UHGV virus genome: UHGV-1665900
Direction: 5' to 3' (one strand)
Length of the DNA stretch: 21,906 bases
Origin: a virus
The notes below the pieces were generated by a model. It was not told the DNA's origin. It did no database searches and saw nothing but the letters and a program-made list of their open reading frames with translations. Positions 1 to 9,467 of the stretch are shown one piece after another. Each line of letters opens with the position of its first letter. Positions within the stretch are counted from its first letter, which is position 1. The translations under genes were made by a program, and so were the position numbers.

Positions 1-86
1 CGCTGATGTCCGGCAGTGCTTTTGCCGTTACGCACCACCCCGTCAGTAGCTGAACAGGAGGGACAGCTGATAGAAACAGAAGCCAC
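1..86 (-). CDS. insA: IS1 InsA, N-terminal fragment (partial, continues beyond window)
   Basis: Minus-strand frame from GTG at 86..84 translates to (M)[27 protein letters not shown]..., the zinc-finger N-terminus of IS1 InsA. Not in the ORF track because it is truncated by the window edge. Confidence 0.7.
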
Positions 87-141
87 TGGAGCACCTCAAA
101 AACACCATCATACACTAAATCAGTAAGTTGGCAGCATCACC
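1..141 (-). mobile_element. IS1-family insertion sequence, left-end fragment continuing off the window start; terminal inverted repeat at about 119..141
   Basis: Reverse complement of 1..141 reads GGTGATGCTGCCAACTTACTGATTTAGTGTATGATGG...GTGGCTTCTGTTTCTATCAGCTGTCCC..., which matches the IS1 left terminal repeat and 5' region as I recall it from IS1/Tn9. Recognition is from memory, not a search. Confidence 0.8.
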
Positions 142-388
142 ACGTGAATCTCCATGATTTCTTCGCCACTGCGCGGCTTCAATCTAAGTACAATTCATTT
201 GCAGCATTGTCTGCAGCAGCAACCGCGCTATTCCAGATTATTGGTTTGTAATGCTTACCAGCCCCAAATTAATCAATACCCAGTGGTATTAGCAATGTCC
301 ATTTCAAGTACATACGTTCTTAAGACATTTGGGCACTGTCATGTCTGTCGGGGAGGAGGTTAAAATCCTCTCGTGCAAAATTTCTTAG

Positions 389-751
389 CTAGAGAATACA
401 AAGAACATCATCTGGTGTTAACACAGAGTCTTCTACGTACTCAGGGTGGTTACGTAATACATCTCTCTGATGTCTCAAGATCTGCGCTGGAATTTCTTGC
501 TCATCCACAATTTTGGCAGTATCCAGCAAAATACTGCCACACCTTATTTCCAGCGAAACAAAGCGATTCCACTCTGGACCATTAGAACACAAAAGGTCAA
601 ACAAAACCTCACCTGTAGCCTGTGAATTGCCCAGTATAACAGAAAGCCTCTTCTCGATTTCGTGAACTGAAGTCAAGGGGTTCTCGTAGCCAGTCGCCAT
701 AACGACGGCAATGAGAGCCCCTGAGACGTTAACACCTGTTATTTCAAACAA
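389..751 (-). CDS. hypothetical protein, 120 aa, second gene of the AT-rich two-gene cassette
   Basis: ORF from the track. Its start codon is TTG at 751..749 with an AAGGA Shine-Dalgarno about 8 nt upstream, embedded in the last codons of the upstream gene, whose TGA stop is at 746..744. The overlap implies translational coupling. I recognise no family. Confidence 0.5.
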   Translation of the reverse strand: MFEITGVNVSGALIAVVMATGYENPLTSVHEIEKRLSVILGNSQATGEVLFDLLCSNGPEWNRFVSLEIRCGSILLDTAKIVDEQEIPAQILRHQRDVLRNHPEYVEDSVLTPDDVLCIL

Positions 752-1814
752 TATACAAATCCTTAATAATTCCCCATGCCTGTCTGGCCTTAGTCATCAG
801 TCGTGCCATGTCAGAAACCATACGGCTTGTGTCGACAACTATCTCCATATGAAACAGGCCATGACGTTCTCTGTTAAAGAAAGTATAGGCATCATTAATG
901 GTCTTAACCTTAGCTGACGATAAATTGCATCCAAATTGTTGTTTCAGAATAAATTCACTCCCAATTTTATCAAAATAACGCCCGAAACCATCCTGCGTGA
1001 TTGGCATGCCATATCGGTACATTGTTGATTTAAGTACTCCCTCAACTGAACGTAATTCAGGATACAACAACATACAGTAATCGGGTAAATCGGGGGCGGC
1101 GAGTTTAACACACAGCCCAGAAACGAGCAATTTTTCAACATTCTTATGCAATAGTGGGTACGCATCCCCCATTTCACACTCTAGATGTGAGCGAGCAACT
1201 TCTTTCTGAACTATATACGCTTTGCCATCGTCCTGACGAATGAGAACTTTTTCCAGTCCTTGTAAATCGAGTAGCTCTGACAAGTTGAATATAAACACTC
1301 TATAACATGACAATGGACGCCCTTGTATTTGTAGTGTTCCATTTCTGTGATGCAGACTAACTGTCAACTCATCCTGAAATTCTGGCGAATGAATTTTCCA
1401 CACCGTTGTATGAGTGTTCCGTAAGTATTCGTAAAATTGTATATGTGGCTGCTCTGCTGAGAGCTGAAGTACAGATAAAACGTTCGCTTCAACGAACCCT
1501 TGTAACACCATATTTACCTGTTCAAATTCTGCAGGATTGATGGTTTCATAGAGATCATCAGCCAACTCTTTTCCAAGATTATGATTAGCTCCTGTTTGAT
1601 ACTGGACTGTAGACGTCCCTCCGTTATTATAGAAAATGTTAACAGTTGCCAAAGCTTCTCCTGGTTTAGCAAACACAACCCGAAGTCCTGCTCTTGCACC
1701 AGGCATTGGTCCAATTGAATGGACGGAATAGTTTTTATTTTCAATAAATGCCCTAGACGTAGCCTCAATAGTTGTCCGATCTAAATTTAAATTAGTGTAG
1801 TTCCTGACTGTCAT
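744..1814 (-). CDS. hypothetical protein of unknown function (356 aa from ATG at 1814; 393 aa if the unsupported upstream ATG at 1925 is used), first gene of the AT-rich cassette
   Basis: Long uninterrupted minus-strand ORF in AT-rich DNA. The ATG at 1814 has AGGG about 10 nt upstream; the ATG at 1925 has no purine-rich RBS and lies only about 23 nt inside the foreign-DNA junction. No Walker A, HNH/zinc or transmembrane features are visible by eye. Confidence 0.6.
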   Translation of the reverse strand: MTVRNYTNLNLDRTTIEATSRAFIENKNYSVHSIGPMPGARAGLRVVFAKPGEALATVNIFYNNGGTSTVQYQTGANHNLGKELADDLYETINPAEFEQVNMVLQGFVEANVLSVLQLSAEQPHIQFYEYLRNTHTTVWKIHSPEFQDELTVSLHHRNGTLQIQGRPLSCYRVFIFNLSELLDLQGLEKVLIRQDDGKAYIVQKEVARSHLECEMGDAYPLLHKNVEKLLVSGLCVKLAAPDLPDYCMLLYPELRSVEGVLKSTMYRYGMPITQDGFGRYFDKIGSEFILKQQFGCNLSSAKVKTINDAYTFFNRERHGLFHMEIVVDTSRMVSDMARLMTKARQAWGIIKDLYIV

Positions 1815-1873
1815 TTGCTTAACCCTATAAAAAAATTTAGCAAACTCTACAATATAGCCCCTCTTTAGTCTAA

Positions 1874-2236
1874 TCAGGCGCTGTATCCTGAAATCGGGTA
1901 CCGATAATATCCCTCCTGCAGCCATGTGTTGGTGTTAACAAGATACTGTGTATCAATTGAATCCGTCAGATTGCAAAAGTTGATGCCTCTTTCGCGCAGT
2001 TCCTCCACCAGCACGACAAGATGCCGCATACTGCGCCCTAACCTGTCCAGCTTCCAGACAACCAGAGTGTCACCTGCCGATAATGTCCTGAGCAGTTTTT
2101 TCAGTCCGGGCCTTTCGGACTTCGTACCGCTTATCTTGTCTTCAAAAATCAGTTCACATCCTACACAGTTCAACGCATTACGTTGTAGATCGGTGTTCTG
2201 GTCATTTGTTGATACGCGTACATAGCCAATAAGCAT
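1874..2236 (-). pseudogene. pin: Din-family serine DNA invertase (Pin/Gin/Cin/Hin-like), truncated after about residue 96 and fused to unrelated sequence; probably inactive
   Basis: From ATG at 2236 (GGGAG RBS about 9 nt upstream) the translation is [22 protein letters not shown]...DTLVVWKLDRLGRSM.HL..LV.ELRERGINF..LTDSIDT, which is a serine-recombinase catalytic domain. After LTDSIDT it continues QYLVNTNTWLQEGYYRYPISGYSA*, unlike the expected remainder of the catalytic domain and the C-terminal helix-turn-helix. The [12 protein letters not shown] extension in the ORF track is probably not translated. Confidence 0.85.
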
Positions 2237-2290
2237 GGTGGATCTCCCTGACAAAAGCAGGAATGATGCCATTTGCTCGTTATTTCTGCA

Positions 2291-2316
2291 TTTTCATAAA
2301 CGTTGGTTTGGGAGAA
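2291..2316. other. Din-type inversion crossover site, left copy (pix/gix-like)
   Basis: ttttcataaacg-tt-ggtttgggagaa has the two 12-bp half-sites around a 2-bp core that is typical of hix/gix sites. Its reverse complement ttctcccaaacc-aa-cgttt... matches 4164..4189 at 18 of its first 19 positions. Confidence 0.6.
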
Positions 2317-2637
2317 GCGGCAAAACGGAATGTGGGAACAGGGGAAAATCAGATACCTGATATGTCATCATATGCATCAGGTTCAGGCTGGCGAAAAATG
2401 CCAGATGGTTCAATTGAACAGTGGGGACGAATTAGTTTTCCTGGTGAACACGGGCCTGTATCCGCCAATGTTTCATTCCCGATTCCATTTACACAGACAC
2501 CGGGAATTGTAATTGTGTGCGATGGTGGTTTCGGGGGCGGGAATATGTGGGGGGCGACCAACTGGAGCACTACCGGCTTCATAGCTCACTGCAATTATGG
2601 TCTTGAAGGTGGTGCGTTTTTCGCTAAGGGCTGGTAA
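2303..2637 (+). CDS. alternative tail-fibre C-terminal cassette (Sv'-like), promoterless and without its own start; expressed only after inversion fuses it to the constant part of the fibre gene
   Basis: The open frame reads ...[18 protein letters not shown]...[16 protein letters not shown]...AKGW*. The crossover site encodes (N)VGLGE here and (LEN)LGLGE in the fibre gene at 4164..4189, so inversion would keep the frame. Confidence 0.55.
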
Positions 2638-3080
2638 TGATGAAATATCTGTACGTAAACAACCTGGCATATCCTTACGAACTTCAGTCTCTTTATGTTG
2701 AAAAAGGTGAATGGCCTGAAGAAAAAGGTGTTGATATAGACGAAGTAATTTTCAGGGAATATTTCTATGATACACCACCAGAAGGAAAATACAGATGTGT
2801 CGGAGAGGATGGACTGCCTGCATGGGCAGATATTCCTCCACCAACACGTGAAGAACAAATTGCATCAGCCGAAACTAAAAAGCAGCAATTGATTAACCAG
2901 GCCAACGAATACATAAACAGTAAACAATGGCCAGGTAAAGCATCAATTGGTCGTCTGAAAGGTGAGGAACTGGCGCAATATAATTTGTGGCTGGATTATC
3001 TGGACGCACTGGAACTGGTCGATACTTCCGGTGCGCCAGATATTGAATGGTCTACGCCTCCGGCAGTTCAGGCCAGATGA
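2637..3080 (+). CDS. tail fibre assembly protein, alternative copy (U'-like)
   Basis: 147-aa ORF whose ATG overlaps the stop of the Sv' cassette (TAATG). Its C-terminus ...LWLDYLDALELVDTSGAPDIEWSTPP resembles the conserved Tfa C-terminal motif and parallels the minus-strand copy (...LDYIDAVTATDTSTAPDVIWPELP). It converges on that copy. Confidence 0.8.
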   Translation: MMKYLYVNNLAYPYELQSLYVEKGEWPEEKGVDIDEVIFREYFYDTPPEGKYRCVGEDGLPAWADIPPPTREEQIASAETKKQQLINQANEYINSKQWPGKASIGRLKGEELAQYNLWLDYLDALELVDTSGAPDIEWSTPPAVQAR

Positions 3081-3645
3081 CGTCCGGCGCTGTGCTGGTA
3101 TCTGTTGCCGTCACCGCGTCAATGTAATCCAGCACAGCGTTAAGTCGGGTGTTTTCTGGCTGCGTCAGCTTCCGCCCAGCCTGTAATTTCAGTTGAATCA
3201 GACTGATGGAAGCCATTGCAGCATCAATCAGCGACTGGCGCTGTGCTTCTGCCGCTTCTACTGCGGCGCTATGCTGTGCCTCGGTATCCGTCACCCATTT
3301 CTCACCATCCCATTTATCGTATGGCGTTAACGGTGAAAGCGTGACATAACCGTCTTTGATGGCACCGATATAATCCACTGTAACAGCTGCGCCATTTTCA
3401 GTTGAGTAAACGGTCTCATTGCGATGGTCTTCTTCATGGCTCCATCCCTTACCCGTAAATACTGCCACTTTTCCCGGGATGTTTTCGCCCGGGTCAATAC
3501 CAGTGGAACAGGCGGGTATACTTACGCCAGTATTAATATATTCATCAGACCAGCCGGTATATTCATACGTTACTGCATTATAATAAAAACAACGCATATC
3601 GCCCGGCACTGTAGCCAGCCCATTTTCATCAAAAACAGGTATCAT
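3052..3645 (-). CDS. tail fibre assembly protein (U-like, currently expressed orientation)
   Basis: 197-aa ORF immediately downstream of the tail fibre gene with start/stop overlap; conserved Tfa-type C-terminus. Confidence 0.85.
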   Translation of the reverse strand: MIPVFDENGLATVPGDMRCFYYNAVTYEYTGWSDEYINTGVSIPACSTGIDPGENIPGKVAVFTGKGWSHEEDHRNETVYSTENGAAVTVDYIGAIKDGYVTLSPLTPYDKWDGEKWVTDTEAQHSAAVEAAEAQRQSLIDAAMASISLIQLKLQAGRKLTQPENTRLNAVLDYIDAVTATDTSTAPDVIWPELPEA

Positions 3646-4466
3646 TATTTAGCCCTCACCAGAAAGTTAAATGCAATATTTCGTGGACGGGTTTCTGTAT
3701 CTACATTTCCACTAATTTCACCATAACGTTTAACACTACGAGAGCTAAGAGCTCGTAGTGAGGAAGGCACCTTAAGACCGGGTTCGTCCGTTTTAACTAT
3801 TCCCCCGTCACCGTATGTAGCCAGTATTCCTGGGTTTACTCCTTCCCGTGCACTTCCTGCGGCAAGCCCGTCCCCCGTCCACAATTCCATATTGTGTGCA
3901 TGATCCATAATTGTGTGTGATTGCCCTGAAAGTAGGGTACGTCCGACATCAATCCCGCGCCCATCATCCCAGATACGAATGAAATCACCCCGTGCGTCAG
4001 GTAATGCTAGCGCCGGAAACACTTTCGCCAGCACAGGGTAATCAGTGGCAGAGAATTTCGCGCCGTTGAACTTCAAAAACACCATACTGGACCAACTGTC
4101 GATTACAGTATTTGGCATTGCGGCGGACGGCCAGAAGAACGGAACGCCAATAGCTGGAGCACCTTCTCCCAAACCAAGGTTTTCGAGAGCCGTTTTCACC
4201 GTGCCATCCGATTTGATATCGCCAAACGGATTCTTGCGGCTTAACAGCAGCGCACGAAGCGCTGTAAGCAGCTGGTCATGCCGCCCCTTCTCTAGGCTGG
4301 CACCGGATGCCTCCACAACACTGCAAAGTTCCTCCTGCAACATGTCAAAGTAGTCATCATCCAGATCGGTGGCAGGTGTGCCGGTCTGGGGGTTACCACG
4401 GGTAAAACCGTTCTTACCCGCGCCGAACTTATCCTTCTGCGCGGTTTTCGTGTCTATACGATGCAT
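3645..4466 (-). CDS. tail fibre protein (constant N-terminal part plus currently joined variable C-terminal part)
   Basis: 273-aa [49 protein letters not shown]..., an N-terminus typical of enterobacterial prophage side tail fibres. The right crossover site lies inside it at 4164..4189. Confidence 0.85.
4164..4189. other. Din-type inversion crossover site, right copy, inside the tail fibre gene
   Basis: ttctcccaaacc-aa-ggttttcgagag, in inverted orientation relative to 2291..2316. Confidence 0.6.
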
Positions 4467-8142: not shown

Positions 8143-9467
8143 TGCACTGGCACCTTCAGAGGGATCACCGGCACAAAGCCGGGATGCGTAATGGCATTAC
8201 GCCGGATAATGTCCGCATCACGCGCCGCGTTATCAAACCAGGTCGCCGCCAGCACCAGCGCGGGTAAAACCTCATCCGGTGTGCGCTGAATGATCCGTGC
8301 AGACTGTTCAAGGCGCGTGTTGATATCCGCATTCAGATCTGCTTTCACCCGGCGCAGTGCCAGAAACAGCGCATCACTGGTTGTACGGGACAACTCCTTA
8401 TCAATTGCCGTATTCAGTGTGTCGCGAATGTCAGTCAGTTCTTCCCACGTTGGCAGGTCAACCGTGTTTTTCACCGCCGGTGCATTGTTCAGTGCCGGAT
8501 GCGTGACGGAAGGCCAGCCAGTGCTCTGCGCAGGTGTTGTTGACTGCCCCACTGCGGCATTCTGCATCACCGCGGAAGTTGTTGGCGCAGGCAATCGGGT
8601 GACGGCATACGCCGCTTCGCTGATTGCGGTCGTACGAAGGGTACTGGCAACCTCGTTACGCTGATGCGTCGCCGTGGCGGTGGTTTTACTGTCCGTTTTC
8701 CAGACGCCGCGCGGTTGCAGATCGCTGCCGAGGCTGACACCGGAAAGCGTTTTGATCATGGTGACCAGGTCGCTGGCGTTACCATAAAGGCGTTTCCCGG
8801 TACGCCACATTTTCTGCACCTGCTCAACGAAATTTTTGCCTGACGATGGTGGCGGCAGAAGTACCGAGATATCCCCCTGCAACAGCCTGGCAGCATCCGA
8901 TACGGCAGAATCCACCACTTTCATCGCATCAGAAACATACCCAAGCATTGTGCTGGCATTACCGACGACGTCGTTCTGCACAAAATCCGCCACGCCATCG
9001 ATACTGAAACCGCTGAAGCTGTCACTGATGCAGTCATCCAGTGCAGAACAGGATGACATCAGCGTCTGCGCCGTCGCCGCACCTGATGTGGGGTAAGAGA
9101 GTTCTCCCGCTTCGACAAACTTCAGGTCAAAGCGGACAATACGCCCTTCACTCTTCGATGTGCTGACCCGAACCTCTCCATCAACACAGACTTTCAGCTC
9201 ACCGTAAGTCGGATGGACAAGCGTGCCGGGACCGGGTTTATTCAGCGCGTCAATCAGGCGATCGCGCTGGTCAAAGCAGTCATCTCCCACCACATAAGCC
9301 GTGATGGACGGGCGGAAAGTGATTTTCCCCAGGTCTTCAGTATAGGGTTTGTCGCGGTTCGGGTATTCGTGCGTTTCCACACGACGACCGGTTCCCGCAC
9401 TTTCTTCTTCAACCTTAAACGGCACACCGCGAAATGACGCGTCCTGAAGTCTGTCTTTCCACGTCAT
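8139..9467 (-). CDS. DNA circulation protein (Mu N / gp43-like)
   Basis: ORF with N-terminal motif ...WKDRLQDASFRGVPF.... Preferred start is ATG at 9467 (MTWKDRL) with GGAG about 7 nt upstream, rather than the ORF-track start at 9509. Confidence 0.7.
   Translation of the reverse strand: MTWKDRLQDASFRGVPFKVEEESAGTGRRVETHEYPNRDKPYTEDLGKITFRPSITAYVVGDDCFDQRDRLIDALNKPGPGTLVHPTYGELKVCVDGEVRVSTSKSEGRIVRFDLKFVEAGELSYPTSGAATAQTLMSSCSALDDCISDSFSGFSIDGVADFVQNDVVGNASTMLGYVSDAMKVVDSAVSDAARLLQGDISVLLPPPSSGKNFVEQVQKMWRTGKRLYGNASDLVTMIKTLSGVSLGSDLQPRGVWKTDSKTTATATHQRNEVASTLRTTAISEAAYAVTRLPAPTTSAVMQNAAVGQSTTPAQSTGWPSVTHPALNNAPAVKNTVDLPTWEELTDIRDTLNTAIDKELSRTTSDALFLALRRVKADLNADINTRLEQSARIIQRTPDEVLPALVLAATWFDNAARDADIIRRNAITHPGFVPVIPLKVPVQ

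Follow-up and report, generated by a model that had tools for sequence, protein, structure and literature searches.

A probable divergent allele of rnlA-rnlB, a toxin-antitoxin system from Escherichia coli, beside a truncated invertase in an e14-family prophage

The best-described relative of the locus reported here is the rnlAB operon of Escherichia coli K-12, in which the toxin gene comes first and the overlapping antitoxin gene lies downstream (PMC5535158). A second, internal promoter for rnlB has been reported inside rnlA, approximately 280 nt upstream (PMC5535158). The K-12 antitoxin RnlB is unstable and needs continuous synthesis; upon T4 shut-off RnlB is lost and RnlA degrades most of the late T4 mRNAs, which the phage counters with an antitoxin of its own, Dmd (PMC5308261, PMC11990801, HIDEN-SEQ preprint). 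Since wild-type T4 has Dmd, K-12 RnlAB blocks only dmd-deficient T4 (PMC5308261). RnlA is known to exchange a resting dimeric state for the canonical HEPN dimer, in which the RX4H motifs are brought together, and RnlB binds this active dimer so that the entrance of the substrate groove is blocked (PMC8266594). Residues R255, E258, R318 and H323 are indispensable to K-12 RnlA activity, the last two being those of the HEPN RX4H motif, while V206 and D245 have been used as probes of the two dimer states (PMC8266594). RNase HI stimulates free RnlA and is also required for full repression by RnlB (PMC5308261). A related pair, LsoA-LsoB, is an anti-T4 system likewise countered by Dmd, and RnlAB and LsoAB each possess their own cognate antitoxin (PMC5308261). 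RnlAB is listed as a system in the DefenseFinder literature.

We found a closely comparable gene pair near the left end of the virus genome UHGV-1665900, analysed here as a stretch of 21,906 nt (hereafter the window, meaning the whole of that stretch). The features discussed below are as follows.

1..141, minus strand: terminal 141 nt of IS1, bounding the cassette on the left and collinear with IS1B in locus L001
142..388, no strand: spacer 3' of rnlB, not homologous to K-12
142..251, plus strand: 3' portion of a hypothetical 89-aa ORF (WP_000429347.1) interrupted by IS1, without a Pfam match
389..751, minus strand: rnlB-family antitoxin gene, 120 aa, TTG start (Pfam, PDB, RefSeq)
744..1814, minus strand: rnlA-family toxin gene, RNase LS-type HEPN endoribonuclease of 356 aa with NTD-NRD-HEPN/DBD organization (Pfam, PDB, RefSeq)
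849..866, minus strand: HEPN RX4H motif R317-H-G-L-F-H322, equivalent to K-12 R318...H323 (alignment)
1041..1052, minus strand: codons R255..E258 (ELRSVEG; alignment to K-12 RnlA)
1815..1949, minus strand: rnlA upstream region, with DNA homology to K-12 up to 1861 and unique junction sequence at 1862..1949
1950..2236, minus strand: 5' remnant of a pinE-type serine invertase (Resolvase N-terminal domain; homology to the intact pinE locus L004 from 1950)
2298..4182, no strand: invertible tail-fibre segment between 20-nt inverted repeats (2298..2317 and 4163..4182)

The cassette consists of two overlapping minus-strand ORFs, 744..1925 (393 aa, or 356 aa from an internal ATG at 1814) and 389..751 (120 aa), an arrangement given in a preliminary description of this DNA and borne out by the ORF listing. 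The AT-richness noted there is real as a contrast, the GC content being 41.3% over 389..1948 (40.4% in rnlA and 44.1% in rnlB) vs. a mean of 54.5% in the remaining window, but it is less marked than was claimed, and the value of 37–38% GC quoted for the cassette was wrong. Both rearrangement junctions proposed to bound it, the IS1 end at 141 and the truncation of the invertase at about 1948, were confirmed. On the left, the junction lies at 141/142, as the near-identical locus L001 carries an annotated IS1B collinear with the first 141 nt and IS1-free relatives match from 142 only; positions from about 119 to 141 are presumably the terminal inverted repeat of the IS1 end. On the right, the breakpoint within the invertase falls at 1949/1950. 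The IS1 insertion, 247 nt downstream of rnlB, would be the later event. In strains JJ1886 and 410 the 89-aa ORF is intact (8841..9110 in locus coordinates, where 9001 equals window position 142). Scanning the entire window for Rfam families and tRNAs gave no matches.

The 393-aa reading of the first gene matched every one of the four Pfam families that describe RnlA, well above their gathering scores: RnlA_toxin_N (PF19417; residues 43–123, E 1.2e-22), RnlA_toxin (PF15935; residues 135–220, E 7e-19), RnlA-toxin_DBD (PF19034; residues 240–361, E 1.7e-33) and HEPN_RnaseLS (PF18869; residues 271–373, E 5e-12). Taken with the alignments to 4i8o and 6y2p, these matches place in the protein the complete three-domain architecture of RnlA, i.e., an N-terminal TBP-like domain, a repeated TBP-like domain and the C-terminal, Dmd-binding HEPN domain. 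The alignment with crystallised K-12 RnlA (PDB 4i8o, 6y2p) runs from end to end (E ~1e-166) with a single 1-residue gap, at a global identity of 71.4%. All four residues essential in K-12 are kept (R255, E258, R317 and H322, corresponding to K-12 R255, E258, R318 and H323), and V206 and D245 are conserved as well. The absence of a P-loop, an HNH motif or a transmembrane segment is what is expected of a HEPN RNase. RefSeq protein WP_001730411.1, labelled "type II toxin-antitoxin system RnlA family toxin", is identical to the window RnlA and has the same coordinates.

The start at 1925 was rejected as the beginning of rnlA. Homology to K-12 RnlA begins exactly at the methionine of ATG 1814 (M38 of the long ORF), RefSeq places the start at the same codon, and the 37-aa N-terminal extension of the longer reading enters the pin remnant. 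Of the 356–393 aa initially allowed for this protein, the lower figure is thus retained, while the K-12 homology and the RefSeq record leave the 393-aa form unsupported.

The second protein is recognized just as readily. Pfam RnlB_antitoxin (PF15933) aligns over profile positions 2–93 of 94 (E 3.5e-24), well above the gathering threshold, and K-12 RnlB in the crystal structure (PDB 6y2p_C) is matched with E 4.4e-51 and a global identity of 66.9%. Again, RefSeq holds an identical protein with the same coordinates (WP_000461705.1, "RnlB family antitoxin"). Its TTG start (751..749) overlaps the rnlA stop codon TGA (746..744), the two genes sharing 8 nt (744..751), and an AAGGA Shine-Dalgarno sequence is located 8 nt upstream of the TTG, within the end of rnlA; the initial reading of this start and ribosome-binding site was confirmed in the sequence. 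The toxin-first order, the 8-nt overlap and the TTG start of the antitoxin gene are all found in K-12 rnlAB. Compared with K-12, dN/dS is 0.11 for rnlA and 0.21 for rnlB, which indicates that both genes are under purifying selection. Judging by these ratios and by the family matches (E 1e-12 to 1e-166), neither ORF resembles a chance reading frame; both are far from it. As a side observation, 29% of the RnlA residues and 33% of the RnlB residues differ from the K-12 prototype.

We conclude, with a probability of roughly 0.9, that the two genes form an intact and divergent allele of rnlA-rnlB, the type II toxin-antitoxin and abortive-infection system known from E. coli. This assignment is based on the families to which the proteins belong, their domain architecture and catalytic residues, the layout of the operon, the purifying selection on both genes and a mobile, variable genetic context.

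As to that context, the pin remnant comprises 287 nt, i.e., about 96 of 184 codons, and its frame continues into unrelated sequence up to a stop at 1874. The resulting ORF (1874..2272) retains the Resolvase N-terminal domain (Pfam, E 8.5e-32), and the C-terminal half of the invertase is missing. In serine invertases, the C-terminal half holds the DNA-binding domain. Inside the adjoining invertible segment, Gp53-like_C and Caudo_TAP genes are found in both orientations. Because pin is truncated, this segment is probably locked; acquisition of rnlAB would have cost the phage its invertase and thereby probably frozen the host-range switch of its tail fibres. The slot beyond pinE carries different cargo in each of five sister e14-family prophages: mcrA, a LEM-3-like GIY-YIG nuclease, a TrlF-family AAA ATPase, an AAA ATPase adjoining another truncated invertase, and a RES-family (RES-domain) NAD+ phosphorylase. 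It had been proposed that the cassette occupies a moron position just beyond the tail-fibre and invertase genes, the one in which e14 carries mcrA, and a comparison of the slot in related prophages had been suggested; the mcrA-bearing relatives and the variety of the other cargo support the proposal well. The pinE-distal slot of e14-family prophages is hence a swap site for defence cargo, and arrival of the cassette would have replaced the 3' half of pinE together with whatever cargo followed, which in e14-type relatives is mcrA.

The window allele occurs at no less than 99% identity in 74 of 5,426 complete E. coli genomes (~1.4%), including the ST131 strain JJ1886, and the K-12 allele in 363 genomes of the same set. 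No genome in this set has more than one rnlAB copy, the two alleles are never found together, and every copy lies on the chromosome, within a prophage or island context. The settings of the window allele are diverse. In JJ1886, the cassette is found at the end of a lambdoid prophage, adjoining ssrA; in strain 410, it is located at the end of an e14-like element; and in Res13-Lact-PEB01-20, where it has the same IS1 insertion as the window, it adjoins a P4-like satellite carrying a reverse transcriptase. The segment common to JJ1886 and strain 410 starts within ssrA, 27 nt from its 3' end, a limit resembling an att-type boundary. In all near-identical copies the cassette is still joined to the pin fragment, up to window position 2133 or further, indicating that the replacement of the pin 3' half happened once and that the joint has since moved between contexts. 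From position 1946 onward, the window corresponds to a myovirus-type e14-family prophage that about 700 genomes share at ~97.5% identity. In none of these is rnlAB joined to the full prophage, and the arrangement of the whole window is absent from the complete E. coli genomes. Moreover, a tblastn search of 50,697 phage records gave no RnlA homologue, so the allele is undocumented on any deposited phage genome. Among plasmids, we found distant RnlA/LsoA relatives only (≤42% identity), and a scan of species-representative genomes, its reach limited by exact-peptide seeding, returned just two loci, both from E. coli and both K-12-like (71%).

On mobile DNA, a type II toxin-antitoxin pair of classic layout, kept together with the adjoining pin fragment in several unrelated contexts, is also what would be seen if the pair were purely selfish, using post-segregational killing to stabilize a prophage remnant or island and conferring no meaningful natural protection against phages. 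The limitation of the K-12 prototype to dmd-deficient T4, the wild-type phage being equipped with the Dmd counter-antitoxin (PMC5308261), points in the same direction. Yet, an anti-phage phenotype has been demonstrated for the K-12 homologue (PMC5308261, PMC11990801, HIDEN-SEQ preprint), and the retention of dmd by T4 implies real selective pressure from RnlA-type toxins. Genetic neighborhoods argue likewise for defence, as the sister prophages fill the slot with other defence genes and K-12 rnlAB adjoins abpAB and a gene with a GmrSD domain. Addiction and defence are, furthermore, not mutually exclusive, and we consider it very unlikely that addiction is the only role of the cassette.

Blastn detects DNA homology to K-12 (~73%) over 405..1861, that is, both genes and 47 nt upstream of rnlA. 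This upstream block contains a 13-nt box, TATTGTAGAGTTT (1842..1854), perfectly conserved with respect to the sequence upstream of K-12 rnlA, which is probably part of a promoter or operator. A consensus sigma-70 scan of the minus strand upstream of rnlA found no site scoring at least 9/12, and the conserved 47 nt are the basis for assuming that rnlA would be expressed from the new junction. Within rnlA, weak minus-strand matches to the promoter consensus are present at 973..946 and 1239..1210, and a conserved candidate, TTGCTC-17-TGnTAAACT, is located near 1100–1135. An apparent island of synonymous-site conservation around the latter (rnlA codons 227–252) was considered as the internal rnlB promoter, and the conservation was not significant (permutation p = 0.47).

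The lack of consensus promoters upstream of rnlA, the rearrangement junctions on both flanks and the IS elements found inside rnlA in some carriers of the allele would suit a silent, decaying relic, left unexpressed after pin truncation and IS1 removed its promoter or terminator. The IS elements do indicate that the toxin is dispensable or counter-selected in the lineages concerned. However, both ORFs of the window are intact, their products are identical to those of copies in other strains, the dN/dS values speak of constraint, and the K-12-shared upstream DNA with its perfectly conserved box has been retained; besides, if the antitoxin were silenced, the toxin gene left behind would kill the cell or soon disappear. 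We therefore regard a silent relic as extremely improbable.

The notion of an undescribed two-gene system of a new family, whose sole prior support was that neither protein had been recognized by eye, gained nothing from testing and is discarded, as Pfam, PDB and RefSeq all assign both proteins to RnlA/RnlB. What the preliminary description had presented as a candidate undescribed defence or addiction module is a toxin-antitoxin pair with a documented anti-phage role, and it is not undescribed, both products being already named in RefSeq; the profile searches it had proposed against Pfam and PDB led to known families. Other libraries were less telling. NCBIfam gave noise only (E > 0.02, far under the cut-offs) and PHROGs weak matches to two families of unknown function. 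PADLOC-DB v2.0.0, a comparison likewise suggested at the outset, had no matches to the window proteins, yet the K-12 RnlA and RnlB prototypes used as a control also gave none, which makes this negative result uninformative and shows that the library evidently lacks an RnlAB model.

For the divergent rnlAB allele, the K-12 system is our guide to activity, lability of RnlB, phage range and Dmd sensitivity, each of which is presumed to be similar. In an uninfected cell, RnlB would be bound to RnlA in its active state, the canonical HEPN dimer, and block access to the catalytic cleft. Shut-off of host expression by a T-even-like phage would lead to the loss of unstable RnlB, and the freed RnlA, stimulated by RNase HI, would degrade phage and host mRNA and abort the infection; phages with a Dmd-type antitoxin would escape. 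Because loss of the genes also frees the stable toxin, the prophage end that carries the pair would have in it an addiction module. Given that K-12 RnlAB stops dmd-deficient T4 only, real-world protection may be narrow.

It is conceivable, but in our view unlikely, that the window allele is a functionally insulated RnlAB variant, whose toxin would be neutralised neither by K-12 RnlB nor by a T4-type Dmd. This proposal has two grounds, the sequence divergence and the literature on cognate antitoxins. If it were true, the allele could protect against wild-type T-even phages able to overcome K-12 RnlAB, and the absence of any genome with both alleles would be a matter of redundancy or incompatibility.

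The RnlAB system is already known, well characterised and annotated in public records, and the identification made here has little significance beyond correct annotation. It does establish that a second rnlAB allele, diverged by ~30%, is in circulation and offers a counterpart to the K-12 allele for comparing specificity towards antitoxin and Dmd; whether the two differ in either respect is the sole question with novelty.

Among known systems, K-12 RnlA-RnlB (RNase LS; CP4-57 prophage; PDB 4I8O, 6Y2P) is the closest. Both have the same three-domain toxin and antitoxin fold family, collinear over the full length, and share R255, E258 and the RX4H motif, the toxin-first operon with its 8-nt overlap and TTG start, and the 47 nt of upstream DNA. 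Both are also low-GC cargo on a prophage. They differ in sequence, the proteins being 71% (RnlA) and 67% (RnlB) identical and the DNA ~73%, in the C terminus of RnlB, which is 3 residues shorter in the window, and in genomic home: K-12 rnlAB lies inside CP4-57, whereas the window-type rnlAB is joined to a truncated pin and occupies the end of a prophage of the e14 family or of lambdoid type.

LsoA-LsoB (pOSAK1 of E. coli O157:H7; PDB 5HY3) belongs to the same RnlA/LsoA HEPN toxin superfamily and has the same toxin-then-antitoxin order. In contrast to the K-12 comparison, identity to LsoA is only ~18–21% (tblastn, lsoA plasmids), and phmmer aligns 5hy3_A over residues 102–370 with E 9.5e-14. 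Unlike the window pair, LsoAB is plasmid-borne. The sequence clearly assigns the window pair to the RnlAB and not to the LsoAB type. In turn, mcrA and the other pinE-distal cargo of e14-family prophages share with the cassette the position beyond the invertase and the role of variable, defence-type cargo, but they are unrelated in proteins and mechanisms, and in the window the invertase itself was lost through the insertion.

As for the whole window, its joining of rnlAB to a full-length e14-family prophage was found in none of the complete E. coli genomes compared (0/5,426). Relatives are of two sorts: in some, the prophage has kept pinE intact and carries other cargo; in the others, rnlAB and the truncated pin adjoin shorter remnants. 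The arrangement in the window may thus be the one in which the replacement first took place.

We compared the pinE-distal slot at five sister-prophage loci, and each of the examined prophages possesses its own gene set there: mcrA (L004), a gene encoding a GIY-YIG nuclease (L006), a TrlF AAA ATPase with hypothetical proteins (L007), an AAA ATPase (L008), and a RES NAD+ phosphorylase with two hypothetical proteins (L009). Some of the unnamed slot genes (WP_059309174.1, WP_053897774.1, and WP_042005101.1) could represent uncharacterised defence candidates.

On the prophage side of the junction, the window retains an invertase remnant and a tail-fibre segment:
1950..2236, remnant of the pin invertase gene, with about 96 of 184 codons left
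2298..4182, invertible tail-fibre segment, bounded by 20-nt inverted repeats (2298..2317 and 4163..4182)
Inside the segment, two pairs of gp53-like and tail-fibre-assembly genes are positioned in opposition to each other. Since pin is cut so short, the host-range switch is probably frozen, barring another Pin/Gin-type invertase acting in trans.

At the opposite end, rnlAB is neighbored by a short ORF:
142..251 (+), 3' part of a hypothetical ORF of 89 aa, WP_000429347.1 (intact copy at 8841..9110 of L002, a locus from a relative free of IS1)
This ORF, for which no Pfam match was obtained, accompanies rnlAB in genomes without IS1, while the window copy has been decapitated by the IS1 insertion. 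Insertion sequences also occur at the window-type rnlAB of some other carriers: in NZ_CP180632.1 (hits H6/H38) rnlA is split by ISVsa5, and in NZ_CM151362.1 (hit H2) IS2 divides the locus match into two pieces, which suggests that the toxin is now and then inactivated.

In relatives, a P4-like satellite is localized immediately to the left of the cassette (6056..9598 in L001, the near-identical locus with IS1B); it encodes a reverse transcriptase together with a partner gene, a retron-like organization. The satellite is adjoined by a further gene:
L001 10201..11340 and L003 7076..8215, conserved hypothetical protein of 379 aa
This gene, whose product likewise gave no Pfam match, is placed between a thrW-type and an ssrA-type att copy.

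In our search of E. coli genomes, no genome combined the K-12-type allele of rnlAB with the window-type one: the 437 carriers have exactly one copy apiece. In the ST131 strain JJ1886, the window-type allele adjoins ssrA, the integration site of CP4-57, the K-12 prophage carrying rnlAB.
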